The position numbers and the translations under genes are program-made. Positions 14,191 to 62,824 of a stretch of 64,000 nucleotides of DNA are shown here, piece by piece (position 1 is the stretch's first letter; each line of letters begins with the position of its first letter). Origin of the DNA: Vicinamibacterales bacterium (GTDB taxonomy: Bacteria > Acidobacteriota > Vicinamibacteria > Vicinamibacterales > SCN-69-37); the NCBI GenBank assembly GCA_035550595.1, contig DASZOV010000004.1:43259-107258 (forward strand), read 5' to 3'. The notes beneath the pieces were generated by a model. The model was given only the letters and a program-made list of their open reading frames with translations. It had not been told where the DNA came from and ran no database searches.

Positions 14191-14302
14191 CGGGGAAGCG
14201 CTGGCGATCCCCTGAAGATGGCGCATAATGCGCCGAGCTTCCTGTCCGTTCACCAGATCACATGCCCGCGCGCAGGCTGCGCGCGAATCAGGAGATGCCG
14301 TG

Positions 14303-15025
14303 ATGGCCGTGTGTTCGCTTGCCGAAGTTCGCCCATCGTCCGGCCGCATCATCGCGACGATCGTTGTCCTGGGACTGGCGCTCGCCGCGGCGCCACGCGC
14401 GTCGGCGCAAGCGGCCGCCGTGCCGCGCTCGCAGCGTTTCGAAGCGGCCGTCCACGCCTATGAGGTCGCTGACGCGGCGAAACCCGAGCCGCGCGGCGCG
14501 ATCCTGCTCGCCGGCGACTCGCAGTTCTATCGCTGGAAGACGCTGCACGAGGACTTGCCGGGCTACACCGTCGTCAATCGTGGCATCGACTCGTTCGAGA
14601 CGTCCGATCTCGTGCACTACGCCGATCGTCTCGTGCTGCCGTACAAGCCGCGGCTCATCGTGCTGCACACGGGCGGCAACGACGTGAACAATGGCAAGAG
14701 TGCCGAGACGATCCTTGCCGACTTCAAGGCGTTCGTCGCGATCGTCCGCGCGGCGATGCCGGACGTGCCCATCGCGTTCACGAGCATCACGCCGAGTCCC
14801 GGCCGCTGGGAACAGGCGCCACGACGGAAGGTCGCCAACGACCTCGTGAAGCGCTACATCGCCACGCAGCCGAAGCTCCTGTACATCGACCTGTGGGACG
14901 CGATGCTGACGCCCGACGGCCAGCCGCGCGAGGACATCTGGGTGGCCGATCGCATTCACCCGAACCAGGCCGGTTATCGCATCCGCGTCGCGATCATGAA
15001 ACCGATCCTCGGGCCGCCGCGCTGA
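14303..15025 (+). CDS. SGNH/GDSL-family hydrolase, secreted
   Basis: ORF 14228..15025 trimmed to MAVCSLAEV... (AGGAG RBS at 14290). Signal peptide; block I ILLAGDSQF, block III HTGGNDV, block V DRIHPN. Confidence 0.8.
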   Translation: MAVCSLAEVRPSSGRIIATIVVLGLALAAAPRASAQAAAVPRSQRFEAAVHAYEVADAAKPEPRGAILLAGDSQFYRWKTLHEDLPGYTVVNRGIDSFETSDLVHYADRLVLPYKPRLIVLHTGGNDVNNGKSAETILADFKAFVAIVRAAMPDVPIAFTSITPSPGRWEQAPRRKVANDLVKRYIATQPKLLYIDLWDAMLTPDGQPREDIWVADRIHPNQAGYRIRVAIMKPILGPPR

Positions 15026-15027
15026 GC

Positions 15028-15120
15028 AAAGATGACACCGCGAGCCCCCGAGCGCCAGCGAGGGCGGCGAGCGTCGTAGCGTTGGGGGTGGGGCCCCAAC
15101 GCATTGCAAAAAAGAAGGCA
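15028..15120 (+). repeat. REP-like ~90-nt element, copy A
   Basis: AAGATGACACCGCGAGCCCCCGAGCGCCAGCGAGGGCGGCGAGCGTCGTAGCGTTGGGGGTGGGGCCCCAACGCATTGCAAAAAAGAAGG. Fills the gap between convergent genes. Homologous to copies at 24090, 24163, 40171 and 61951. Confidence 0.85.
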
Positions 15121-15128
15121 GCGACTCG

Positions 15129-16259
15129 TCACGCGTGGTCGCGCGGCAGTCCCATCACGATCTTGATCCCCACGATCGCCGCCACGATCACGCCAATGCC
15201 GAGTACCGGCTCGCGCGTGAAGGGCATCAGCAGAATGAGCGGTGCGGCGGCTGGGCCGAGCCAGCGGGTGCGGCGATAGGCCGGGCGGTAGTGCAGGATC
15301 CAGAGACAGAGCAGATAGACGACGACGGGGATCGCGACCGCGAAGCCCGCGCCGACCGATCCGATCTCCGTATGTCCCGTGCGCTGGTCGATCGCGACGC
15401 CCAGCCCCGCGCCGACCGCCGCGACCGACGCGAACACGAGATAGTGGCCGTAGCCCCAGAGAATGGCCGTGCGCAGACTCGTGAGCAGATCGTGCGCGGG
15501 GCGGTCGAAATAGATCCACCACATCCCGTACACGATGAGCGGTCCGCCGATGATGACCGGCATGAGCGCGCCGAGCGGGTCGCCCGCGTCGACGACCGAT
15601 TGCACGGCGACCGTCGACGACAGGATCGACTCGCCGAGCACGATGATCGTCAAGAGCCCGTACCGTTCCGCGATGTGATGCGGATGCCACGTCGTCGGCG
15701 TGTGGCGTTCGGCCCACACGGGGACGGCGAGCTCCAGCACGAGAAACGTCAGGAATCCGGGAATCCAGAGGCCCGGCAGAAACGCCAGCGTGACCCAGCA
15801 GACCTGGACCACCGCGACACCGATTGCGTACCGCAACGCCGTCGGCCGTCGCGCCCGATCGCCGGCGGCCGCGCGCAGCCACTGCGCCACGAGCGCCAGC
15901 CGCATGACGACGTACCCGATGATGACGGCGAGCGCGGGACCGCGGACTTCGAACATGCGCGAGATGCCGGCCGCGAGGATGAGCGCGCCCGTGATCTGCA
16001 CGAACACGGCGAGCCGATACGGGACGTCGTCGCAGTCGTAGGCGGAGGCGAACCACGTGAAGTTCATCCACGCCCACCAGATGGCGAAGAACACCATCGC
16101 GAAGCCTTCGAGCCCGTGCGCCACGTGGCCCCCGGCCACGGCATGATGGAGCTCCGCCGCGGCGCGTGAGATCGCGACGACGAAGACGAGATCGAAGAGC
16201 AGCTCGAGCGGCGTCGAGACGCGGTGCGGCTCGTCGGGCGACCGGGCGATCATCGGCAT
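15129..16259 (-). CDS. Low-temperature-requirement protein A (LtrA) family membrane protein
   Basis: 376-aa ORF. N-terminus RVSTPLELLFDLVFVVAISRAAAELHH is the LtrA signature; polytopic. Confidence 0.85.
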   Translation of the reverse strand: MPMIARSPDEPHRVSTPLELLFDLVFVVAISRAAAELHHAVAGGHVAHGLEGFAMVFFAIWWAWMNFTWFASAYDCDDVPYRLAVFVQITGALILAAGISRMFEVRGPALAVIIGYVVMRLALVAQWLRAAAGDRARRPTALRYAIGVAVVQVCWVTLAFLPGLWIPGFLTFLVLELAVPVWAERHTPTTWHPHHIAERYGLLTIIVLGESILSSTVAVQSVVDAGDPLGALMPVIIGGPLIVYGMWWIYFDRPAHDLLTSLRTAILWGYGHYLVFASVAAVGAGLGVAIDQRTGHTEIGSVGAGFAVAIPVVVYLLCLWILHYRPAYRRTRWLGPAAAPLILLMPFTREPVLGIGVIVAAIVGIKIVMGLPRDHA

Positions 16260-18865: not shown

Positions 18866-18972
18866 GTCAACTTCGAACTTTGAACTGTGAACTTCGAAAT
18901 GTGGTTCTGCGCTTGGGCGTGGCTCGATCAAGAACCAATTTCGAAGTTCGAAGTTTGAAGTTCGAAGTTGAC
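18866..18972. repeat. 107-nt long hairpin element with TTCGAA-heptad arms
   Basis: Left arm GTCAACTTCGAACTTTGAACTGTGAACTTCGAAAT (18866-18900) pairs with right arm ATTTCGAAGTTCGAAGTTTGAAGTTCGAAGTTGAC (18938-18972); most mismatches are G-U compatible. Inner stem TGGTTCT/AGAACCA. Confidence 0.85.
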
Positions 18973-23700: not shown

Positions 23701-24084
23701 TCAGCGCCGGCGTCCACGTGGCGATCGGGATGCCGGTCTCACGTGGCCGGCGAGGTACTCCTGAAGCGCCACCGCATTATTGTGCACGGTATCGCGCGAA
23801 CTGAAGACGAGCGTCACCCGCCCGCGCCGCGCCGCGGCGGCGATGGGTGCCCATGCCTCTGGCCGAGCGTCGAGCTCGCGGAAATAGCGCGTGCGGAACG
23901 CGTCCCACTTCGCCGGATCGTGGCTGAACCACTTACGGAGCGCCGTGCTCGGCCCCACGTCGGGCAGCCAGGCCTCGAGCGGCAGATCCGTCTTCTTGAT
24001 GCCGCGCGGCCACAACCGCTCCACGAGAAATCGGGCCCCGTCGTCTTTGGCTGGTGGGTCGTACGCGCGTTTCAGAGTGATCAT
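23701..24084 (-). CDS. DUF488 (YeaO-like) family protein
   Basis: [71 protein letters not shown] matches the DUF488 pattern. Confidence 0.8.
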
Positions 24085-24089
24085 TGGCT

Positions 24090-24253
24090 GTCATCTTTTT
24101 TGCAGTGCGTTGGGGCCCCACCCCCAACGCTACGCGCTTCGCCGCCCTCGCTACGCTCGCGAGTCATCTTCTTTGCAATGGCGCGGGGCCCCACCCCCGC
24201 GCTACGCGCTTCGCCACCCTCGCTACGCTCGGGGGCTCGCGGTGTCATCTTTC
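24090..24253 (-). repeat. REP-like element, tandem copies B1 (24090-24162, internal ~9-nt deletion) and B2 (24163-24253)
   Basis: The reverse complement of B2 reads GATGACACCGCGAGCCCCCGAGCGTAGCGAGGGTGGCGAAGCGCGTAGCGCGGGGGTGGGGCCCCGCGCCATTGCAAAGAAGATGAC. B1 has the GCGTTGGGG/CCCCAACGC stem variant. Confidence 0.85.
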
Positions 24254-24276
24254 TTAATTGTTGTCTTTACCTTTAG

Positions 24277-24305
24277 CCTTCGCGATCTTCGCGCCTTCGC
24301 GTGAG
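24277..24305 (-). repeat. CGCGAAG-octamer repeat block (28-mer core)
   Basis: The reverse complement is TCACGCGAAGGCGCGAAGATCGCGAAGG, identical to 51688-51715 and 27/28 identical to 52718-52745. Confidence 0.85.
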
Positions 24306-24420
24306 ATTTCCGGCCCATCCCCTGTCTTCCTGTCCCTCGTCCCGCTCTTGCCGCGAAGCCGTCTCTTCCACGATACTGCCGGCGTCATCCCGCACGTTCA
24401 CTCCAGAAGGAGCGTCCACG

Positions 24421-27300: not shown

Positions 27301-27362
27301 CAACTTCGAACTTCGAACCGAGAACTTCGAACGGAGGAGGCGCCTTCGGCGCATCGTTCTCG
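27301..27362. repeat. CGAACTT-repeat plus GCGCC-TTC-GGCGC mini-hairpin element (same core as 5747-5795)
   Basis: CAACTTCGAACTTCGAACCGAGAACTTCGAACGGAGGAGGCGCCTTCGGCGCATCGTTCTCG. CGAGAAC (27319-25) pairs with GTTCTCG (27356-62). Confidence 0.75.
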
Positions 27363-39322: not shown

Positions 39323-40042
39323 TTACGGGCGCCCGGCGGCAATGTCAGGCGGTCTTCGCCGCAGCAACGACCACGGGAAGAAATACACCGCGTAGATCAT
39401 CGCCACCATCCGGAAGTTGTCGAAGTGCAGGGCGGCTGCGCCGATGAGCAGGAAGATCGTCAGGTGCATCTGCATGACCTGCCGGTACGGCGCGAGTATC
39501 GAGATGTTGTTTGCATCCATGGCGGACTGGGCGGCGTTGGAGCGCGAAGCAGCCACGCGTGGCATCGACGGTTGCCGCACGAAAATTGCGCGCTCGGCGA
39601 CGAACGCGGCCGGCAGGAACGACCAGTAGCGCCGGGCGACGGTCGCGTAGGCATGGAGGCCGGGAAAGCCGGGCGTGCCGTCGACGGGGAAGAACGTGTT
39701 CAAGAACACCGAATGCACGAAATGGAACATCCCGAAGTGGAACGTGAAGAAGCCCAACAGGAAGACGGCGAAGACGATGACGCCGGCGGCCGCTCCTCCG
39801 GTCGGCCGCTCAGTCGTGGCGCCGTTCGCTGCGGTCCGGCCACGCGCGGGAAGCAGGCCGCTCGCGCCCGTGGCCGCCAGTCGTCCCACGCTCCACAGGA
39901 TGGACGAGTAACCGACGACGAGGCTCGACAGCCACAGACTCCAGATGAGATCGCGCGCCTGCCACTGCTGCCACCACGCGAGCGTGAGGCCGCCCGCGAA
40001 GGCGCAGACATCCCATCCCGCGGTTAGCCATCGCCGCCGCAC
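39323..40042 (-). CDS. Polytopic membrane protein (DUF6498-like; assignment from memory)
   Basis: ORF 39323..40165. The N-terminal 40 aa of the ORF are translated from CGCGAAG repeat DNA, so the start was moved to GTG 40042 (VRRRWLTAGWDV). His-rich TM motif FHFGMFHFVHSVF. Confidence 0.5.
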   Translation of the reverse strand: MRRRWLTAGWDVCAFAGGLTLAWWQQWQARDLIWSLWLSSLVVGYSSILWSVGRLAATGASGLLPARGRTAANGATTERPTGGAAAGVIVFAVFLLGFFTFHFGMFHFVHSVFLNTFFPVDGTPGFPGLHAYATVARRYWSFLPAAFVAERAIFVRQPSMPRVAASRSNAAQSAMDANNISILAPYRQVMQMHLTIFLLIGAAALHFDNFRMVAMIYAVYFFPWSLLRRRPPDIAAGRP

Positions 40043-40095
40043 GGCGCAGAGCGTAGCGGGAGTCGGGGAGAGGCGCAATTGGGGACGGAAGATAC

Positions 40096-40133
40096 GGGCG
40101 AAGCCTCGCGCGAAGTCGCGAAGACGCGAAGGG
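40096..40133 (+). repeat. CGCGAAG-octamer array
   Basis: GGGCGAAGCCTCGCGCGAAGTCGCGAAGACGCGAAGGG. Confidence 0.8.
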
Positions 40134-40170
40134 TAGGGATAGAGACAGAGGCCATCGCGCGCCAAGTAAT

Positions 40171-40264
40171 AAATGACGCCGCGAGCCCCCGAGCGCAGCG
40201 AGGGCGGCTAAGCGTGTGAGGCGCGGGATGGGGCCCGCGCCACTGCAAAGAAGATGACTGGCCC
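40171..40264 (+). repeat. REP-like ~90-nt element, copy C
   Basis: AAATGACGCCGCGAGCCCCCGAGCGCAGCGAGGGCGGCTAAGCGTGTGAGGCGCGGGATGGGGCCCGCGCCACTGCAAAGAAGATGACTGGCCCT. The 3' end is identical to copy D. Confidence 0.85.
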
Positions 40265-40268
40265 TCCT

Positions 40269-42959
40269 CTATCCCTCCCGCGCGATCGCCCGCACGGGCT
40301 CGATGCGCATCGCGCGCCGCGCCGGGAGGTAGCTCGTGAGCAGTGTCGTCAGGAGCAGCGCCGCAACGGCGGCGGCGATGACGAACGGATCGGCGGCGTG
40401 AAGGCCGAAGATGCGCTGGCGGAGCAGGTGAATGGCGAGAAACGTCACGCCGCCGCCGATGACCGTCCCGGCGAGGCCGAGCGAGAGGCCCCGACGGATG
40501 ACGTCGCCCAGCACGTCGGCCGGCGTGGCGCCGAGTGCGACGCGCAGGCCGAATTCCGCCGTCCGCGCGGCGACGAGGTATGACAGCACGCCGTACACGC
40601 CGACCGCGGCGATCGCGACCGCGAGCATCGCGAATAACGATACCAGCAGCACTTCGGCCCGGGTCATGTCGAACCGGTGGCCCATCAGAGTCGTCATGGG
40701 CGCCAGGTTTTCGATCACCGCCTCGGCATCGACGCGCCTGACGGCCGAGTGGATCTGAGACGCCATTGCCGCCGGGTCGCCCGTCGTGTGGACGACAACG
40801 TCTGCCCAGAAGCCGGGCGTCTGGAAGAAGGGCACGAAGACGTCGGGGGCAGGCCGTGTCGACGAGTACACGAGCATGTCGCCGACGACACCGACGATCT
40901 CGTACGGCGCGGAGAGCAGCGCACGGCCGCCGGCGACCGGCGGCAGGGTGATCGTGCGGCCGATGGCCGTGCCGTCGGGCCAGAGCGTCCTCGCCACCGT
41001 CTGATTGACGATCGCGACGGGCGGCGCGTGCGCGTCGTCTCGATCCGTGAAGAAGCGGCCGGCGAGGAGCGGCACGCCCAGCGTCCTGAAGTAGCCCGGA
41101 CTGGACGCTCGGATGTCCGCGGCGATCCGTGTGGATGGCTGGTCTCGGCCGGCCGTCAGCGACGCGATGCCCCAGACGCCGAGTTGTCCGCCAGGTGCGC
41201 CCGTCGCGAGTCCGACGGACGCGACGCCGTGCAGTCGAGACATGGCATGGACGACGTCGTGGAAAAATGCGCGGCTCGAGGCGTCGTCACGCACGCGACT
41301 CGACGGCCACGACGAGACCGTCAGCGAGAGGATGTGATCCGCCGAGAAACCATGGTCGACGTGGAGCAGGGCGACGAACGACTTCACCATCAGCCCGCCC
41401 GCGGCGGCGAGCACGAGTGATACGGCGATCTGGACGACGACGAGCACACGCTGCGAGCGCCGGGCAGTTCGGCTGGTGGCCAGCGGCCGCGCGGCCGTTC
41501 GCAGCCTCGGCAACGATCGGATGCGGCCGAAGGCAGGAATGACGCCGCACGTGACGCCGGTGAACATCGTGACGACGAGTGAAGTGAAGAGCACGTGAGC
41601 GTCCACGCGTGCGTCGGCGATCCGCACGGCCGGCACGAACGAGGCGACGAACGGTGTAGCCACCCACGCGACGCACACGCCGACGGCGCCGCCGATCGCC
41701 GATACGACTAGAGATTCGACGATCGCCAGCCGCGCCAGCCGCCATCGGCTGGCGCCAAGGGCAGCGCGGACGACGACGTCGTGCCGGCGCGCGGCGTGCC
41801 GCGCGAGGAACAGGCCGGCGACGTTTGCGCAGGCCATCAGGAGCAGCAGCGCGACCGCGACGAGCAGCGTGCCGAACGCTCTGGCCACGCCGCCGAGCAA
41901 GGAGTCGGCCAGTGACGTGGCGCGCGGCGACCACGTCTGGTTCGTCGCGGGGTATGCCCAGGCGAGACGTGTGCCGATCACGGCCAGCTCTGCGCGGAGC
42001 CCATCGATCGTGGCGTCCGGCTTCAGCAGGCCGATCGCGGTCGAGCCGCGCAGGTGCCGGTCGGATGCGTTGGACACCGGTCTCCACATGACGTCGCCGG
42101 CATAGAACGGGTATCGGAAACCGGGCGGCATGACACCGACCACGGTCACCGTCATGTGCACGGCATGGAGCGTCCGGCCGACGATGTGAGGATCGGAGCC
42201 ATAGGCGTGGCGCCACAGTGCGTCACTCAGGATGGCGACTCGATTGGCGTCGCGCACGTCTTCGGGCGTGAAAGACCGGCCGAGCGCAGGTACCGCCCCC
42301 AGCACCGTGAAGAGGTTCGGCGACACCTGGTAGACGACCGTTCGCTTGGGTTCGCCGCCGTCGTGAAAGACGTCAGCGCCGTACCACCAGTGCGCGACGT
42401 CCGCGAGCGACGGCGCGGCACGATAGTCGCCGATTTCCGGATCGGAGAGCAAAGCGAACGAGCCCGTTTTAGTGTTGACGTCCTCGATCGTCACGAGCCG
42501 ATCCGCGTTCGCGTACGGCAACGGCTTCAGCCAGACGTGGTATGCGAGCGCGTAAATCGTCGTCGTGGCACCGATGCCGAGCGCGAGCGTCGCGATCGTG
42601 AGCGCGGCGAAGCCGGGCTGGCGGGCGATCACGCGTCCCGTCAGACGCAGATCGTGTCCGAGGCCGACGAACGGGCCGCGGGCCCGACGCGGCTCGGCGT
42701 CAGCTTCAGCGTCGCCCGTTCCCCACGTCACGCGCCGGCGCCATCGGTCGGCATGCGCGACGATGCCGGCCAGGCTCACGCGCCAGATCTGACGCGCGAG
42801 CCAGGCCAGTGCGGCGACGCGCCCTGTGGGACGTTCCGCGCGCCACATGTCGTCGAGCATGGCGAGGATCTCGTCGCCGTATCCGTCCCGCAGCGTACGC
42901 GGGTAGAGGCGCACGAGGGCTCGTACGAGACGCGCGACCGGAGCGGGAAGGCCGAGCAT
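40269..42959 (-). CDS. ADOP-type duplicated FtsX/MacB-like permease (copy 2)
   Basis: 896 aa. Prefix domain (YGDEILAMLDDMW) and two FtsX modules, ending ...ARRAMRIEPVRAIAREG. Confidence 0.85.
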   Translation of the reverse strand: MLGLPAPVARLVRALVRLYPRTLRDGYGDEILAMLDDMWRAERPTGRVAALAWLARQIWRVSLAGIVAHADRWRRRVTWGTGDAEADAEPRRARGPFVGLGHDLRLTGRVIARQPGFAALTIATLALGIGATTTIYALAYHVWLKPLPYANADRLVTIEDVNTKTGSFALLSDPEIGDYRAAPSLADVAHWWYGADVFHDGGEPKRTVVYQVSPNLFTVLGAVPALGRSFTPEDVRDANRVAILSDALWRHAYGSDPHIVGRTLHAVHMTVTVVGVMPPGFRYPFYAGDVMWRPVSNASDRHLRGSTAIGLLKPDATIDGLRAELAVIGTRLAWAYPATNQTWSPRATSLADSLLGGVARAFGTLLVAVALLLLMACANVAGLFLARHAARRHDVVVRAALGASRWRLARLAIVESLVVSAIGGAVGVCVAWVATPFVASFVPAVRIADARVDAHVLFTSLVVTMFTGVTCGVIPAFGRIRSLPRLRTAARPLATSRTARRSQRVLVVVQIAVSLVLAAAGGLMVKSFVALLHVDHGFSADHILSLTVSSWPSSRVRDDASSRAFFHDVVHAMSRLHGVASVGLATGAPGGQLGVWGIASLTAGRDQPSTRIAADIRASSPGYFRTLGVPLLAGRFFTDRDDAHAPPVAIVNQTVARTLWPDGTAIGRTITLPPVAGGRALLSAPYEIVGVVGDMLVYSSTRPAPDVFVPFFQTPGFWADVVVHTTGDPAAMASQIHSAVRRVDAEAVIENLAPMTTLMGHRFDMTRAEVLLVSLFAMLAVAIAAVGVYGVLSYLVAARTAEFGLRVALGATPADVLGDVIRRGLSLGLAGTVIGGGVTFLAIHLLRQRIFGLHAADPFVIAAAVAALLLTTLLTSYLPARRAMRIEPVRAIAREG

Positions 42960-43430: not shown

Positions 43431-43532
43431 CAACTTCGAACTTCGAACTGAGGTTCCGGGCGTCGCCATCCGGCCGCCACGTCCGCACCGGGAACCAATT
43501 TCGAACTTCGAAGTTCATAGTTCGAAGTTGAC
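43431..43532. repeat. TTCGAA-arm hairpin element (second full member)
   Basis: CAACTTCGAACTTCGAACTGAGGTTCCGGG...CCGGGAACCAATTTCGAACTTCGAAGTTCATAGTTCGAAGTTG. Same arm/inner-stem architecture as 18866-18972. Confidence 0.8.
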
Positions 43533-45882: not shown

Positions 45883-46110
45883 TCAACTTCGAACTTCGAA
45901 CTATGAACTTCGAACTTGTTCCGGGTTCGGCCTCGCGCGAAGACGCGAAGGCTCGAATGATGGTGGAAGGACTTACATGCTGGTGGGGAGAACCTGGAAC
46001 CTGAGCACCGGGAACCGGGGAACCTTTCGAACCTGGAACCGCAGAACCCGGAACCCAGCCCAGAACCAGGAACCAGAACCAGGAACGCTGAACCCTGGAA
46101 CCCGGAACCC
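45883..46110. repeat. Composite intergenic mosaic: TTCGAA-heptad arm + CGCGAAG block + ~17 x GAACC array
   Basis: 45883-45925 is GTCAACTTCGAACTTCGAACTATGAACTTCGAACTTGTTCCGGG. 45929-45951 is GGCCTCGCGCGAAGACGCGAAGG, identical to 53651-53673. 45988-46110 is GAACC every 6-9 nt. Confidence 0.85.
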
Positions 46111-51609: not shown

Positions 51610-51770
51610 CGCGCGAAGCCGCGGACGCGAAGGACGGACGACGCTTCGCGCGAAGGCTCGGACGGGCCTCACGCGAAGGGGGGACATTTCACGCGAAGGC
51701 GCGAAGATCGCGAAGGGATCCGACTAGTTCTTTCTTTTCACGTTCGCGGCTTCGCGCGTGAGGCTTACGC
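51610..51770. repeat. CGCGAAG-octamer composite (7 forward and 2 inverted copies), imperfect long palindrome
   Basis: Contains GCGCGAAGCC, GACGCGAAGG, the palindrome CTTCGCGCGAAG, CCTCACGCGAAGG, and the 28-mer TCACGCGAAGGCGCGAAGATCGCGAAGG (51688-51715), then the inverted GGCTTCGCGCGTGAGG. Confidence 0.85.
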
Positions 51771-52679: not shown

Positions 52680-52825
52680 CTCACGCGAAGACGCGAACAA
52701 TGCGAAGGACAGGCACCTCACGCGAAGGCGCGAAGATCGAGAAGGAGAGCGGATCGTAGGCCGCGCCTTCGCGGCTTCGCGTGAGGCCTCGTGAGCGGGC
52801 ATTTTGTCGTCTTCGCGCGAGGCTC
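52680..52825. repeat. CGCGAAG-octamer composite, same organisation and orientation as 51610-51770
   Basis: CCTCACGCGAAGACGCGAACAATGCGAAGG...TCACGCGAAGGCGCGAAGATCGAGAAGG (52718-52745)...GCCTTCGCGGCTTCGCGTGAGGCC...CGTCTTCGCGCGAGGC. Confidence 0.85.
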
Positions 52826-53556: not shown

Positions 53557-53604
53557 AATAGATAGTTATCACACTGAAGCAACTTAAGCAAAACAAAGCC
53601 ATAG

Positions 53605-53683
53605 CGCGAGGCCCGAGTGGAGCGAGGGTGCCGAAGCGTCGTAGGCGTGGGGCCTCGCGCGAAGACGCGAAGGTCGCGAAGAC
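53605..53683 (+). repeat. Degenerate REP-like copy E fused to a CGCGAAG block
   Basis: GCGCGAGGCCCGAGTGGAGCGAGGGTGCCGAAGCGTCGTAGGCGTGGGGCC, then CTCGCGCGAAGACGCGAAGGTCGCGAAGAC. Confidence 0.7.
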
Positions 53684-53755
53684 AGAAGCCTACCGTGTCG
53701 TAGGGCTGGCGGCCGCGTTCACATCGGCTGCAAAAAAGCGGACACAAAAAAAAGA

Positions 53756-53793
53756 GCGGGTGGGCCGTGGCCCACCCGCTCTTCGTGTGTGAA
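53756..53793 (-). terminator. Rho-independent terminator of TonB-dependent receptor copy 1
   Basis: On the minus strand AAGAGCGGGTGGGCC-loop-GGCCCACCCGCTCTT (15-bp stem) is followed by a run of 8 T. It starts 12 nt after the stop codon. Confidence 0.9.
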
Positions 53794-53804
53794 GTGGCTG
53801 ACGC

Positions 53805-57503: not shown

Positions 57504-57837
57504 GTTCTGGCCTCCATCCCCTGACACACGACGAACAGGACCCCGTCGGAACCCGGCCACGCCCGGCCGGACGCCTGTCGTTCGGTGATCTGACAGGCGC
57601 TCCAGTCGTTCGCGGTTGCGACGGCCGCAGCCGCCGCCCCGGACACGACGCCATCCTGCCTAGCTATCCCGGACACAGTAGCGGGCGGTCGAAGGCGTGC
57701 CCATCCGGCGCCAACCGTATTTCTCAGGACTGAAGAGGCTCGTATTGCTCGCGCCGGAATGGGTGGGGGGACCGCTCGCGGGCCCGATTTCCGGCCGGAC
57801 CCTCCCGTCTTGTCCTGACGGGAGCGCAAAAAAAGAG

Positions 57838-57875
57838 CGGGTGGGCCAGAGGCCCACCCGCTCTTCGTGTGTGAA
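57838..57875 (-). terminator. Rho-independent terminator of TonB-dependent receptor copy 2
   Basis: Same 15-bp stem as 53762-53793 with a different loop (AGA), followed by a run of 7 T on the minus strand. Confidence 0.9.
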
Positions 57876-57886
57876 GCGATCCGCGC

Positions 57887-60800
57887 TTAGAACGAGAGGC
57901 GGAAGGTCAACTGGACCGTCCGCATGTCCTGCGCGCTCGTCGCGCCACCGAACCCGGCGCTCTTCGGCTGGGCCTTGGTCGGATCGACGCTGCCGTCGGC
58001 CAGGAACTGCGAGTTGCGGACGCCCTGGTCCGTCGGGTTGGTCAACTGGAGCTGCGCCTGCCGGTTGTTGTAGACGAGCACGTTGAACGCGTTGAACGCG
58101 TCCACGCGGACCTGCGCCTGCCGGCCGCCGCCGAGGCGGAAGTTCCGGACGAGCGCCAGGTCGACCGTCTTGTTCGGGCAGCCCTGGAGGATGTTGCGAC
58201 CCGACTCCATGCCGTCGCTGTGGTAGGTCGGACCCGCCACGACGCCGGCGTTGAACTGCGCGTACTGGTTGCTCGAGCAGCCGCTGCCAGGATCGCCGTT
58301 GTAAAGGAGCCGGGCGGCGTAGTCGGGCGACCCCGTCAGATTCACGTTCGAACCGTTGTTCTGGTACGTGTAGCTCAGGTCGTAATGTCCACCCGAGCCA
58401 GCCGACAACACGCCCGACAACTGCCAGTCGTTGAGGATGGCCGCGACGACGCGCTTGCCGCCGCTGTCGGCGCTCATGTCCGGCAGGTCCCACACGGCAT
58501 TCGCGATGAGCGTGTGCCGCCGCAGGTCGAGGTCCTTCATCAGGTCGAACCACTGCGCGTTGTCGGCGCGCAGCGAGACCGTGCCGTCCGGCGAGTGCTG
58601 AAGCCGCTCGACGTCCATGTTGCTGATGTTCGGGAGGCCGGTATTGCCCGTGAAGGAGAGCCCGAGCGTGTAGTTGAGCCCGAACTGGAGTCCGTTCACG
58701 AACCGGCGGTTGAGCGAGGCCTGGATCGAGTGATACGTCTGGTAGAACCCGCTCGTGTTCTGCCCGATGTTGTTCAGGCCCTGGTAGGTCCGGAGCATGA
58801 CGTCGGGGAGCGCCGTGGCGCCCGGCACCGAGCTCGGGGCCTTGGTCGGATCCTGGTTCTCGGGCAGGTACGCCGCGCCGAGATCGACGGAGTTCAGGTT
58901 CAGGCGCCCGTTGCCCTGGAAGTCGCCCATCATGTTGTAGCCGTGGCTACCGACATAGGACAGGTCGAGCGACGAGCTCCACGGCAACACCATCTGCACA
59001 CCCGCGTTCCACTGTACCGACGACGGGATGTCCGCGTCGTACTGGAACGTGATCAGGTCAGGCGTGCCAATCGTGCTCACACTGCCCGACAGGTTCTGCA
59101 GGTTGCCGTTGCGGAGGTCCTGCGAGTCGGCGAACGGCGGGTTGCTCGGGATCGAGAACACCGTGTTGCCGTCCGGCCGGTCGTAGAACAGACCGAGGCC
59201 GCCACGCACGACGAAGCGCTGGTCGCCGCTGAGGTCATAGGCGGCGCCGAAGCGCGGGCCGAAGACCATCGATGGCCACGTGTACCCCGTCTTCGCGATG
59301 CCGTCGCCGGCCGCGCGAATGCCGTCCAACCGGTCACCCGAGTTCGGGACGACCGTGCCGATGAACGCCGAGCTGTTCGTCGCGTTCGGGATGACGAGGA
59401 GCTCACCGGTGAGCGGGTTCATCGCGTTGCGCTGGTTGGCCGAGCAGGGATTCACGCCGCTCGCGCAGGCCGGCACGTAGAGCACCGGGGCCGTCGCCGC
59501 ATTCCATTGATCCGGGAAGAAGCCGGACATCTGGCCGAACTGGTCGTACTGCGGCTCCTGGTGCGTGAAGCGCATGCCGTAGTCGAGGGTCAACCGCGAA
59601 GTCATCTTCCAGTTGTCCTGGAGGTAGAACTCCGTGTTGTTGTAAATCATGTTGCCCTCGATGAGCTGCGACGACTGCTGGTAGCGGTCGAACACGCCCA
59701 CGGCTGCGTTGGCGAACCCGAAGCCCGTATCGATCGGGTTGTTGCTGTCGTTGTTGAAGCTGACGGTGCCCTGGAACGAGCCCGCGCCGCCGGCGCCGGT
59801 GTTCTGGGCCTTGAAGCTGTGGTTGTTGTAGAAGCCGGCCTTCATCGTGTGGTGACCCGCAACCTTGGTCACGCTCACCGCGAAGTCCTGCGTCTTGTTC
59901 ACGTTCAGCCAGCCCGGATACTGCAGGTTCAGCGTGCCGGGATTGGAAATCAGACCGCCCCAGTTGAAGAGCGGCGGCAGGTTGACGCTGGTACCGTCGA
60001 AGTAGATGGCGCCGGTGCGCGTGAGCGCGTCGAGCTGGTAGTAGCGCGGATCGACCTTGCCCGCGTTCGGATAGAGCAGCGGGAAGTCGGCCAGGCCGTT
60101 CAACCGGTTGGCGCTGTCGTTGACGAGGATGCCACCCGAGCCGCCGCCGGCCAGCTCGTTCTTGATCGAGCCGTAGACGGCCTCGATGAACGTCGTCGGC
60201 GTCAACGTGTAGTCCACCGTGAAGCCATAGTTCGTGATGTACGGATAGGGGATCAACACGTCGTTGTAGCCCGGCAGCGTGCCGACCTGGACGCGCTGCT
60301 GGTCACGCTGGGCGGAGTACTTGCCCGTGATGCGAAGGGCGGGCGAGAGCTGGTAGTCCACGCGGATGGCCGGCTGCTGCACGAGGTGCTTGTCCTCGGC
60401 GCGTTCGAGCTCCGTGTTGTAGCTCGTGCCGGGTGCCTGCGTGATGTTCGGCAGCGGGTACCGGTTCAGGACGTTCAGGCCCACCTGGTACAGGTCGGCC
60501 TGCGGGATGACGTTGTTCGGGTACGGTTCCCGCGTGGTCGGGCTGAGCAGTTGAGGAATCGGCGCGCCGTTGTTGTCGAGCGACTGCGAGAAGTCGCCCT
60601 GCCGCTCGAGCGCGGTCGGCAGGCGGAAACGGTTGATCGACCCAGCCGTCTTCTGCGGATGATATTCGTGGCTGTAGAAGAAGAACAGCTTGTTGTTCCC
60701 ACCCGGCTTGCCGATCGGGCCGCCAATGGAGTAACCCCAGCGCCGGTCCTTCAGCTCAGGCTTCTGGTTGCCATTGGCTTTGTCCTGCCACTTGATGGTG

Positions 60801-61564
60801 TCCCAATCGGAGTTGCGCTCGACGTCGTAGAGGGAGCCGTGGAAGCGGTTCGTGCCGCTCTTGGTCACGGCCGTGATCTGCGTGCCGCTCGACCGGCCGT
60901 ACTCGGCCTGGTAGCCCTGCGTGAGCACCTTGACCTCGGCGATCGACTCGATGTTCAACTGCAGCATCTGGCCGTTGTTGCCCGTGTCCATGGCCGAGAT
61001 GCCGTCCATCTGGAGATTGTTCTGGCCGCTCGAACCGAGCCGGTTCTGTGAACCCATGGCCATGCCGGGGGCCATGCGCGCGAGATCCGCGAAGTTGTTG
61101 CGGTTGATCGGCAGGTTCGCCACCTGCGTCGTGTCAACCGTGAAGGAGCGTTCACCGCTCTGGGCCTGAATCATCGGCGCTTCGGCGGTGACATCGACGG
61201 TTTCCGTCGTGCCGCCGACTTCCAGGGTCAGCGTGCCGACGACAACACGGTCGCCGCCGCTCACCGCCACGTCCTTGCGCGCCGTGGTCTTGAAGCCGCT
61301 CATCGACACTTCGACGGTGTACGTGTCGGCCGTGACGTTCGCGATGACCCAGTCACCGGTTTCGTTGGTGACGACCGGGATCGACTTCGTCCCGCGTGAC
61401 TGACTGGTGAGCACCACGGTGGCGCCTGGAATGACGCCGCCCTGCGTGTCTTTGACCGTCCCGGCCACCGTGCCGGTCGTGATCTGCGCCGAAGCGCTCG
61501 GCACCGCGAAGCACCCGAGGATCAGTGCTGTCGCTACTGCCCAAACCTTGCCTTTCCACTGCAT
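57887..61564 (-). CDS. TonB-dependent receptor with carboxypeptidase-regulatory-like domain (copy 2, tandem paralogue)
   Basis: ORF 57887..61606 trimmed to [27 protein letters not shown]. About 90% identical to copy 1 over the stretches compared by eye, with a 7-aa deletion near residue 190. Confidence 0.9.
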
Positions 61565-61950
61565 GTTTCTGGCCTCCATCCCCTGACACACGACGAACAG
61601 GACCACGTCAGGACCCGGCCGCGGGCACCAGACGCCTGTCGTTTTCGGTGCTCGACACGCGATCTGCCGCCCGCGGTCGCGGTGGCCGCAGCCACCGCCC
61701 CGGACACGACGTCATCCTGGCTAGCTATCCCGGGCACAGTAACGGGCAGGGGGAGATGTAGCCATACCTGAGAGTCAGTATTGTCATGTCAGAAAAGGAT
61801 GTATTTTCAGGTCTTCACAGGCCCCCTGTCGGCCAGGCCACGGCCCATGGCGCCTGCCATTTTTCGTCAAATTTCGAGCATTTTCGAGAAAACAAGCATG
61901 GACGGGACAGGAAACGGGCGCTGGGGAGGCGGCAGGGGACAGGGCCAAAG

Positions 61951-62045
61951 AAAAGATGGCACCGCGAGCCCCCGAGCGGAGCGAGGGCGGCGAAGCGCGT
62001 AGCGCGGGGGGGCCTGCGCCACTGCAAAGAAGATGACTGGCCCTG
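61951..62045 (+). repeat. REP-like ~90-nt element, copy D
   Basis: AAAAGATGGCACCGCGAGCCCCCGAGCGGAGCGAGGGCGGCGAAGCGCGTAGCGCGGGGGGGCCTGCGCCACTGCAAAGAAGATGACTGGCCCT. Confidence 0.85.
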
Positions 62046-62123
62046 CCGCCTAGACCTAGCTGCGCCGAAGAGAGCCGACAGGCCCCCAAGCCTTGCTAAA
62101 AAGATGACGGGCGAGCGACGGCT

Positions 62124-62774
62124 CTACGAGATCACGCCGCGGCGGACGGCGTACAGGACGAGCTCCGCCGTATTGTGCACGTCCAGCTTCTGCAGGATGT
62201 GCGCGCGGTGCGTCTCGACTGTGGCAGGGCTGAGGCAGAGCAGGTCGGCCACTTCCTTATTACTGCGGCCCTCGGCGACGAGCTGCAGGACCTCTCGCTC
62301 GCGTTCCGACAGGGAGTCGTATCGATCGGCCACGCCCTTCTCCGTGAGGTGGCGGACGTAGTCGTCCAGCACGACCGTGGCCACCGACGGGCTGAAAAAG
62401 GACTTGTCGGATGCAACGGCCGTCACGGCATGGACGAGGTCCACGTCGGCCGATTCCTTGAGCAGGTAGCCGCGGGCGCCGGCCTGCAGGGCCTGGACGA
62501 TGTACGCCTCGTCGGTGTGCATGCTGAGGATCAGCACGCGGATGTTCGGCGCGCGCCGCACGATCTGCCGCGTGGCCTCGATGCCGTTGAGCAACGGCAT
62601 GCCGATGTCGAGGATCGCCACGTCCGGCTGCAGCTCGAGTGCCTTGCGCACGGCTTCGCGTCCGTCGCACGCCTCGTCGACCACCGTCCAGGTCTGGCGC
62701 TCTTCGAGGATCTTGCGGATACCCTGCCGAACGAGGGTGTGGTCGTCTCCGAGCAGAATCGATAGTTTGGCCAT
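62124..62774 (-). CDS. NarL/FixJ-family response regulator (receiver + LuxR-type HTH)
   Basis: MAKLSILLGDDHTLVRQGIRKILEE...DVAILDIGMPLLNG...SEREREVLQLVAEGRSNKEVADLLCLSPATVETHRAHILQKL. Confidence 0.9.
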   Translation of the reverse strand: MAKLSILLGDDHTLVRQGIRKILEERQTWTVVDEACDGREAVRKALELQPDVAILDIGMPLLNGIEATRQIVRRAPNIRVLILSMHTDEAYIVQALQAGARGYLLKESADVDLVHAVTAVASDKSFFSPSVATVVLDDYVRHLTEKGVADRYDSLSEREREVLQLVAEGRSNKEVADLLCLSPATVETHRAHILQKLDVHNTAELVLYAVRRGVIS

Positions 62775-62782
62775 ACGAGAAA

Positions 62783-62822
62783 GTTAGAAGTTCGAAGCCA
62801 GAAGCCAGAAGCCAGAAGTTCG
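62783..62822. repeat. GCCAGAA x3 flanked by AGTTCGAA palindromes in the kinase-regulator spacer
   Basis: AGAAGTTCGAAGCCAGAAGCCAGAAGCCAGAAGTTCGAACT fills the 50-nt gap between the HK stop (62825) and the RR start (62774). Confidence 0.8.
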
Positions 62823-62824
62823 AA

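Follow-up and report, generated by a model that had tools for sequence, protein, structure and literature searches.

This study concerns a structured intergenic repeat of about 93 nt that recurs in a 64-kb stretch of DNA (the window, in which all positions below are counted) from contig DASZOV010000004.1 of a Vicinamibacterales bacterium, phylum Acidobacteriota. The window has a G+C content of 67%, and its genes include TonB-dependent-receptor-like outer-membrane barrels, a MacB/FtsX permease, LtrA and DUF488. A reading made from the letters of this DNA alone (the sequence-only reading) had placed six copies of the repeat here, all intergenic, and both the coordinates and the strands it gave proved correct, with BLAST and a covariance model in agreement; the copies lie, without exception, between genes, at a spacing of about one per 10 kb. 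Derived from 39 full-length copies and run with filters off at every position of the window, the model (R1) recovered exactly these six, the next best match having E=0.027, and each copy searched against the window by BLAST matched the others at E 1e-9 to 1e-24. The unit consists, in order, of the 8-mer AAGATGAC, a first hairpin (hp1), GTAG, a second hairpin (hp2) and a tail closing in TGCAAAGAAGATGAC. From shuffled sequence, 0.98 occurrences of AAGATGAC would be expected in the window; there are 11, a number that none of 100 shuffles reaches.

The copies in the window

Copy A, a full unit (15028..15120, plus strand; R1 15026-15122, 101.7 bits), lies between the stop codons of the convergent genes for a GDSL lipase (14228-15025, plus) and LtrA (15129-16259, minus), and is thus sense to one and antisense to the other; its hp2 stem is CGTTGGGG/CCCCAACG. 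The B locus holds a tandem array on the minus strand, in sense orientation within a divergent promoter region. Its first unit, B2 (24163..24253; R1 24160-24254, 105.3 bits), is full, with the 5' AAGATGAC at 24244-24251, hp1 at 24204-24243, GTAG plus hp2 at 24181-24202 (stem CGCGGGG/CCCCGCG) and the 3' tail TTGCAAAGAAGATGAC ending at 24163. The second, B1 (24090..24162; R1 24087-24154, 48.1 bits), is a short-type unit with the hp2 stem CGTTGGGG/CCCCAACG, and it ends 6 nt ahead of the ATG of the DUF488 gene (23701-24084, minus). The sequence-only reading had noticed that a segment was lost from B1, and a segment is indeed missing; it comprises 8 nt (CCCCCGAG, the 5' arm of the middle helix of hp1), and it defines a short form that recurs at eight or more other loci rather than a one-off deletion. 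Directly 5' of the array on the element strand stands a purine-rich simple-repeat block (24254..24340, minus) made of an A-rich linker, CGCGAAG octamers (24276-24301) and GACAGGNN octamers.

The remaining three copies are on the plus strand and antisense to their neighbours. Copy C, a full unit (40171..40264; R1 40167-40261, 93.4 bits), separates the minus-strand genes for the MacB/FtsX permease (40269-42959) and DUF6498 (39323-40165) and sits within a flanking inverted repeat (40131-40154, GGGTAGGGATAGAGACAGAGGCCA; 40259-40279, TGGCCCTCCTCTATCCCTCCC). Copy D (61951..62045; R1 61950-62040, 83.8 bits), full with a shortened hp2 loop, lies between a response regulator gene (62124-62774, minus) and a TonB-dependent-receptor-like gene (57887-61606, minus), again within a flanking inverted repeat (61928-61947 and 62038-62050). 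Copy E (53592..53680; R1 35.5 bits, E=2e-8) is degenerate: hp1 is intact with a compensated G19-C40 pair, GTAG and the 5' half of hp2 are kept, and a CGCGAAG octamer array (53658-53683) stands in place of the 3' half of the copy. At 62098..62120 (plus), 53 nt downstream of D, AAAAAGATGACGGGCGAGCGACG resembles GATGAC-TCGCGAGCG and, judged by that resemblance, may be what is left of the 5' end of a short-type unit. The statement that every copy carries the same 8-mer at both ends needs correction in three places, the 8-mer being imperfect at the 3' end of A (AAGAAGGC) and at the 5' ends of C (AAATGAC) and D (AAGATGGC).

Structure, pairing and ends of the unit

The consensus reads AAAAAGATGAC ACC GCGAGCCCCCGAGCG-N-AGCGAGGGCGGCGAAGCG(C)C GTAG CGCTGGGG GTGGGG CCCCAGCG CAYTGCAAARAAGATGAC. 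Its hp1 is an irregular hairpin of about 40 nt, in which an outer CGC/GCG helix is followed by an internal loop, a middle helix of six pairs with one bulge (GCCCCC/GGG(Y)GGC), a tandem G.A/A.G mismatch and, at the tip, two pairs closed by a G-N-A loop (GCG-N-AGC, a GNA triloop). Bulges and G.A mismatches are invariant in 39 copies, and the loop base varies freely between invariant neighbours (T 15, C 13, G 10 and A 1 in the 39 aligned full copies). GCG-N-AGC is a classic, very stable DNA mini-hairpin motif, and the tip hints that the fold matters in DNA. The second hairpin has a GC-rich stem of 8-9 bp, its arms fully complementary in almost every copy, and a 6-nt G-rich loop, G(T)GGGG; the tetramer directly ahead of it is GTAG or, in some of the 39 aligned full copies, GTGG, GTCG or GCAG, with the T and the final G kept in at least 90%. 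At the centre of hp2, TGGGGCCCCA forms a perfect palindrome, and where the loop GGGGT is missing, as in two of the loci sampled outside the window (L010, L047), hp2 becomes a perfect palindrome of 18 bp. It stands 17 nt from the 3' end, before the tail (C)A(Y)TGCAAARAAGATGAC. Conservation extends to non-stem sequence, namely the TGCAAARAAGATGAC tail and ACACCGCGAG. The ends are direct (AAGATGAC...AAGATGAC), with no terminal inverted repeats in the unit.

Covariation was assessed on the 56 copies that R1 finds in the window and 39 loci, fitted to the structure of the model; these copies are related by descent. Standard pairs fill 98.4% of the pair cells compared with 89.4% in shuffles, none of 500 shuffles being as high, and pairing falls to 31-55% when the partner columns are slid by 1-3. 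Both sides have changed at 11 of the 22 pairs, in both hairpins, giving 27 further pair types. In hp1, which the sequence-only reading had left out of its description and which also covaries, pair 19-40 goes from C-G to G-C in 8 copies, window copy E among them, and further compensated changes are G-C to A-T at 26-32 and 18-41 and C-G to G-C at 23-35. In hp2, a listing made without any alignment gave six perfectly complementary stem versions (CGTTGGGG/CCCCAACG, CGCTGGGG/CCCCAGCG, CGCCGGGG/CCCCGGCG, CGGTGGGG/CCCCACCG, CGCGGGG/CCCCGCG and GCGCGGGG/CCCCGCGC), to which a seventh, CGAT...AGCG, adds one with a single mismatch. The earlier suggestion that pairing rather than sequence is conserved in the stem-loop was sound, with a stronger case than it had claimed, and its count of two versions was too low; allowing for the shared descent of the copies and the fit of the alignment to the structure, the variants are still not just two lineages. 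G.T pairs outnumber A.C pairs by 21 to 7, 12 of the 21 lying in the weakest, outer helix.

The terminal 8-mers were considered as a target-site duplication, a reading that we reject because the two ends vary independently. The 5' and 3' terminal hexamers are identical in 15 copies where 16.8 are expected, and in the 17 copies whose 5' hexamer departs from the consensus (GTTGAC, GTTGAT, GCTGAC and others) the 3' end never carries the same variant. A pure host-target origin of the left 8-mer is weakened by linkage to internal variants: the 5' ..GAT variant is tied to the (T/A)T version of hp2 some 60 nt away (5/5 vs 6/35, Fisher p=0.0007), which implies that the left hexamer is copied with the element at least in its 3' part. 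Position 2 of the 5' hexamer (A or T) has no obvious linkage to internal variants.

Two further candidate features did not hold. A small open reading frame (ORF), ATG ACA CCG ... TAG, of 15 amino acids, in which the variable base N falls on the third position of a codon, was rejected; 1-nt indels in GCG(C)CGTAG and GGCG(A)AGCG break the frame in about half of the copies, and many copies have GTTGAC or GCTGAC at the start. A general outer stem, which would make the unit a three-way-junction RNA, was likewise dropped, flanking inverted repeats being present only at C, D and L026, with a median score of 12 against 11 for the control.

Arrays, distribution and turnover

Every multimer is head-to-tail, one AAGATGAC being common to each junction, and there are no inverted pairs of the 93-nt element among the multimers of the window and the loci. 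In arrays the full unit always comes first and is followed only by short-type units, GATGAC-(T)NGCGAGCG..., in which the middle helix of hp1 is without its 8-nt 5' arm; this full-then-short form is seen in B2-B1 of the window and at L002, L010, L015, L025, L028, L045, L051, L053 and L064 (3 units). The hp2 versions of the two units differ between arrays, so that the arrays do not go back to the copying of a single dimer. The element also occurs as hp1-only fragments, hp2-only fragments and a deletion form, and a sister module (X), with a first hairpin like hp1, the same GGGGGTGGGGCCCC core and a AAGAAAAGATGGC tail, has recombined into some copies. On the element strand, purine-rich simple repeats of 7-8 nt (CGCGAAGN-, GCCAGAAG- and GGGGACAG-type) with an A-run precede about 26 of 45 copies, counted by eye.

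Such simple repeats also occur in the window in their own right. CGCGAAGN octamers give 16 matches against 5.5 expected and form arrays at 24276-24301, 40109-40131, 45936-45958, 51612-51756, 52684-52781 and 53658-53683; three of the arrays abut copies of the 93-nt element, and those at 51.6 kb and 52.7 kb are inverted pairs (TCACGCGAAGNCGCGAAG ... CTTCGCGNCTTCGCGTGA). Arrays of the heptamer (AACTTCG)n, or of its complement (CGAAGTT)n, lie at 18869-18969, 27302-27336, 43432-43529 and 45885-45917. The first and third of these are inverted pairs with a spacer of 40-60 nt and ends GTCAAC...GTTGAC, just upstream of plus-strand genes (for a TPR/DUF1570 protein and a Na+/H+ antiporter); the array at 27302-27336 is single and upstream of a PadR regulator gene, and that at 45885-45917, also single, lies just past the stop of a plus-strand gene, between convergent genes. 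These heptamers could form long hairpins or operator-like arrays. Short-period intergenic arrays at 45990-46110 and 62781-62824 consist of GAACCNG heptamers (about 17 units) and AAGTTAG/GCCAGAAG repeats, and GCCAGAAG repeats also stand ahead of many element copies in an uncultured Acidobacteria metagenome-assembled genome (MAG), CALFMR01.

CALFMR01 also carries the element itself. A scan of one genome per species with a 22-nt core pattern, GAGCCCCCGAGCG-N(1-2)-AGCGAGGG, matched at least 53 stretches; among the matches listed, about 40 came from this MAG and two, with diverged copies, from a Vicinamibacterales MAG. The part of CALFMR01 that was sampled has no fewer than 45 copies, so the element plainly exists beyond the window; absence elsewhere would, by the sequence-only reading's own account, have refuted its proposal. 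Coding DNA of CALFMR01 and the window is 66-80% identical, which makes them different species; even so, the nearest relative of each of the four full-length window copies is found in CALFMR01 and not in the window (B2 is 96% identical to the L040 copy, A 91% to that of L053), and the hp2 stem versions are the same in both genomes. Core matches in Kofleriaceae, Phycisphaerae, Gemmatimonadales, Mycobacterium, Nocardioides, Rokubacteria and Spirochaetia were set aside, as they have only the CCCCCGAGCG-N-AGCGAGGGGG hairpin in common and are not the element. Assembly GCA_964544615.1 belongs to the same species as the window (LtrA protein 99% identical), and several close LtrA homologues are labelled Vicinamibacterales by their sources.

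When metagenome contigs were searched for hp2 followed by the tail, 8 stretches from soil (L073-L080) emerged, which carry a related family. It keeps hp2 and CAGTGCAAAAAAGATGAC (GCGCTGGGGGAGGGGCCCCAGCGCCAGTGCAAAAAAGATGAC), lacks the 5' AAGATGAC, has AGCTC or ATCTG where GTAG is expected and a different 5' hairpin (ATGCCGAGCG...CGCGAGGCAT), and in some copies nests a second hairpin in the hp2 loop; no transposase was found in these 8 stretches. Viral contigs and PLSDB plasmids gave no matches, leaving carriage by phage or plasmid unsupported. Rfam 15 has no match at gathering scores anywhere in the window, and at E up to 10 the best hit at the B locus is GA-cis with 11.7 bits against a gathering score of 34.7 bits. 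In the literature we found no paper describing such repeats in Vicinamibacteria. Two observations concern the assemblies: a 2.1-kb contig labelled as from an Oscillatoriaceae cyanobacterium MAG (L013, DATNPP010000649.1) carries a good copy (71 bits) and is most likely a mis-binned Acidobacteria contig; and CALFMR01 contigs end inside element copies (L011:1-62, L016:1-56, L035:1-70, L047:1-48), so that the element appears to break short-read assemblies of these genomes.

Two sites could be followed through relatives. At the convergent LtrA/GDSL spacer (percentages are LtrA protein identity to the window), copy A occupies a spacer of 103 nt in the window and in the 99% relative (L061). The 92% (L056, L063) and 87% (L062) relatives have instead a different hairpin repeat, CCCGGGCCTGAAGGCCCGGG, with CTTCTGG repeats, arranged as inverted pairs in L056/L063 and in three to four copies in L062, and the 85% relatives have a rearranged locus whose spacer measures 42 nt and is free of the element. 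At the divergent spacer between DUF488 and a 3-keto-disaccharide hydrolase gene (percentages are DUF488 protein identity), the window has 337 nt with two units. A 98% relative (L064) has 418 nt with a third unit, a changed hp2 in unit 2 and one extra GACAGG-type octamer; its number of GACAGGNN octamers differs by one unit from that of the window. Of the eight contigs obtained, the six checked are identical over this spacer. The 88% relative (L072) has 85 nt with neither simple repeats nor element. Comparisons at these two sites show rapid gain, loss and change of array size.

A second hairpin family, (GTGGAG)CCCCGGGCCTGAAGGCCCGGGG, was met in the close relatives and CALFMR01 (L056:4120-4250, L062:3075-3280, L063:2380-2433, L026, L027, and L072:1484 on the minus strand), with no copies in the window. 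It often forms inverted pairs, in the manner of REPINs (paired repetitive extragenic palindromes), and in relatives it fills the LtrA/GDSL spacer where the window has copy A; in L026 one 93-nt element lies between the two arms of such a pair.

Relative to genes, 40 copies with callable neighbours divide into 14 between convergent genes, 11 co-oriented, 8 anti-oriented and 7 between divergent genes, which amounts to an excess at gene 3' ends without strand bias, and copies are often 1-20 nt from a stop codon. An intrinsic terminator was considered for these positions. No T-run lies within 2 nt of hp1 or hp2 on either strand, a terminator scan giving only a weak 5-bp site in B1; since the same genome has canonical terminators with a hairpin plus T-run, the terminator reading was rejected. 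Two near-identical canonical terminators (AAAAAAAGAGCGGGTGGGCC...GGCCCACCCGCTCTT, minus-strand hairpin and T-run) in the window, at 53746-53799 and about 57835-57880, follow the two tandem TonB-dependent-receptor-like genes. A conserved leader of about 150 nt is likewise common to the two genes, upstream of each (57561-57700 and 61607-61760), and the arrangement suggests that receptor gene, leader and terminator were duplicated together in tandem.

Interpretation and comparison with known systems

We favour, with some reserve, a view of the element as a structured, non-autonomous DNA repeat of the REP (repetitive extragenic palindromic) and BIME (bacterial interspersed mosaic element) kind, specific to a lineage of Vicinamibacterales. 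This reading follows from the pairing kept in both hairpins, the consensus conserved across diverged species, the lack of strand bias and of terminator features, and the turnover. The unit would then be propagated as DNA by an enzyme acting in trans, perhaps a protein that reads a single strand and recognises its folded hairpins as well as the conserved, unpaired tail and the terminal 8-mers; an HUH-type single-strand nuclease or transposase encoded elsewhere in the genome would be the most likely candidate. Copies would build up where they are tolerated, that is, in the spaces between genes, notably past stop codons and within other intergenic repeats, and would also expand into head-to-tail arrays. 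Any effect on the host, for instance at the 3' ends of mRNAs or in the DUF488 5' leader, would be secondary.

Several observations weigh against this view. The enzyme was sought in 528 kb (the window and all loci), which is only a small part of each genome, with E. coli RayT as tblastn query, by a hidden Markov model (HMM) of 15 RAYT/TIRYT proteins (PMC3733652 supplement) and by scans for RAYT and class-3 motifs, and no RAYT, IS200-like or class-3 TnpA-Y1 protein is encoded there. Folding-energy z-scores are modest (-1.3 to -2.8). The excess of G.T over A.C pairs weakly favours one strand, or RNA. Relatives differ by whole mosaics at both sites, with no clean empty site between alignable flanks, and recombination or deletion could explain the site differences as well as insertion. 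Lastly, conservation across species that includes unpaired segments would also fit a function for the host.

With respect to the enzyme, the class-3 signature (NHVH ... YV[VI]xEQ) was not seen in the 528 kb, nor did the examined loci show an autonomous relative, whose like ends would enclose tnpA, tnpB or both; for the window itself, tblastn, HMM and motif scans all bore out the earlier remark that it has no transposase or RAYT-like gene. A possible RAYT beside L012:2843 was discarded, the translation of the adjacent ORF reading apparently as a glycoside hydrolase and not as a Y1 transposase.

If the selected molecule were instead an RNA, the hairpin pair would sit at mRNA ends as exonuclease protection or as a processing site, as has been proposed for many REPs. 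Enrichment of copies after stop codons and between convergent genes, their frequent proximity to the stop, compensatory changes that include some G.U pairs and the strong conservation of the consensus across species are what such a role predicts; however, between co-directional genes 11 copies are sense and 8 antisense, which is no orientation bias to the upstream gene, copies also lie in divergent promoter regions (the B locus), orthologous sites in close relatives gain and lose the element or are filled by other repeat families, and no Rfam family matches. We regard this role as improbable, although a strand-neutral stabiliser function, with hairpins working on both strands, may exist as a side effect. 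We think it still less probable that the element serves as a duplex-DNA platform for a host protein (a nucleoid-associated protein, gyrase or a regulator), as E. coli BIMEs do, with the GGGGCCCC palindrome and AAGATGAC as sites. The conserved non-stem sequence, the palindromic hp2 centre and the fully palindromic short-loop hp2, as well as the copy density in the window, would suit such a platform, but six stem versions that have nothing in common except complementarity would not be tolerated by a dimeric, base-reading protein, hp1 with its bulges and G.A mismatches is not palindromic as a duplex and yet covaries, and presence in one close relative and absence from another speaks against an essential architectural role.

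The paired changes themselves might be unselected, if hairpin-templated repair or gene conversion equalised the two arms and the stem versions were a few copy lineages. That the copies are related by descent, so that cell counts overstate the number of events, and that subfamilies are common to both genomes, accords with such a process; it would have to account for double changes at 11 pairs with 27 extra pair types in both hairpins, and for a loop base that varies freely in GCG-N-AGC while its neighbours are fixed in 39 full copies, and repair from arm to arm would erase the hp1 bulges and mismatches that these copies keep unchanged. We consider this, too, very unlikely.

More speculatively, the REP/BIME-type repeat that we favour might be the substrate of an undescribed HUH system of the 'nick, peel and paste' or rolling-circle kind, in which copies of the nick motif AAGATGAC flank the unit in direct orientation and a separate hairpin at each end serves for recognition. 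Although we hold this to be unlikely, it would account for head-to-tail full-then-short arrays, for the lack of inverted repeats and target duplications, and for an hp2-plus-tail module common to otherwise different families. If true, it would define a class of miniature single-stranded-DNA transposon distinct both from REPINs, which are inverted pairs, and from IS200/IS605 derivatives with their left host target.

Vicinamibacterales are among the most abundant soil bacteria and, to our knowledge, almost unstudied genetically. For annotation of their genomes, so dense and well-defined a repeat family needs masking. ORF callers read through the GC-rich units, as the sequence-only reading had pointed out, and MAG assemblies appear to break at the repeats. 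For strain typing, the number of units offers a marker that differs even between relatives with 98% identical DUF488 protein. The element also provides a tractable case for REP-like mobilisation outside Proteobacteria, its anatomy of direct repeats and two hairpins being a misfit to the REPIN model. It would gain interest if the mobilising enzyme uses direct-repeat nick sites, and finding the partner enzyme would widen the range over which HUH-mediated single-strand DNA mobility is known.

Compared with known systems, the label 'REP-like' given by the sequence-only reading is apt in a loose sense, on account of GTAG at the hp2 foot, extragenic position, density and enrichment between convergent genes, and is strained by the two-hairpin composite, the head-to-tail order and the lack, in the DNA searched, of a RAYT, association with which defines REP/REPIN systems. 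As in the GTAG-tagged superfamily of REPs and REPINs (Di Nocera et al. 2013, PMC3733652), hp2 is a short GC-rich hairpin with complementary stem sub-versions and, at its 5' foot in the aligned full copies, GTAG or a close variant, and the element is extragenic, dense and clustered, enriched between convergent and co-directional genes and conserved in consensus across species. Unlike a REP of 20-40 nt, the whole unit measures about 93 nt and combines two unrelated hairpins, conserved single-stranded segments and imperfect direct terminal repeats, and the related family that keeps hp2 and tail has no GTAG, unlike GTAG REPs. Inverted pairs are typical of REPINs and most REP dimers, whereas the arrays here are head-to-tail only; this order, the composite 93-nt unit with direct terminal repeats and the unproven RAYT link argue against membership in REPIN-RAYT proper. 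The survey of GTAG-tagged REPs does not report GTAG repeats in Acidobacteria, where Y1 transposases are flanked by inverted repeats and not by REPs (PMC3733652). Class-3 TnpA-Y1 genes of Acidobacteria are flanked by atypical hairpins, some 600 of them in Solibacter usitatus (Quentin et al. 2018, PMC6006769). By description, the class 3 'REPtron-like' systems of Acidobacteria and Planctomycetes resemble the element in phylum, in high-copy atypical hairpins that fall outside the classic definition of a REP and in a proposed HUH Y1 partner, and differ in that their structures are defined by a 5' foot CnGA and by flanking the Y1 gene (PMC6006769).

Turning to transposons, the element lacks terminal inverted repeats and target-site duplications, unlike a miniature inverted-repeat transposable element (MITE) derived from a DDE transposon and like IS200/IS605 miniatures (PATE-type MITEs) and IS91/Helitron. 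Single-strand mechanisms of the HUH type can yield strictly oriented head-to-tail multimers. With the IS200/IS605 miniatures the element further has in common distinct subterminal hairpins, hp1 near the 5' end and hp2 near the 3' end, followed by a conserved tail of about 17 nt. The left flank of IS200/IS605 is host target; at least part of the 5' hexamer of the element, in contrast, is co-inherited with internal variants. In overall design there are also parallels with the BIMEs of Enterobacteria and the BOX elements of Streptococcus pneumoniae, modular mosaics of hairpin modules and short motifs in variable number, to which the full and short units, the hp1-only and hp2-only forms, module X and the flanking 7-8-nt simple repeats can be likened. 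REP orientation alternates in BIMEs. The arrays described here, unrelated in sequence to BIMEs and BOX, run in one direction and keep a fixed full-then-short order.

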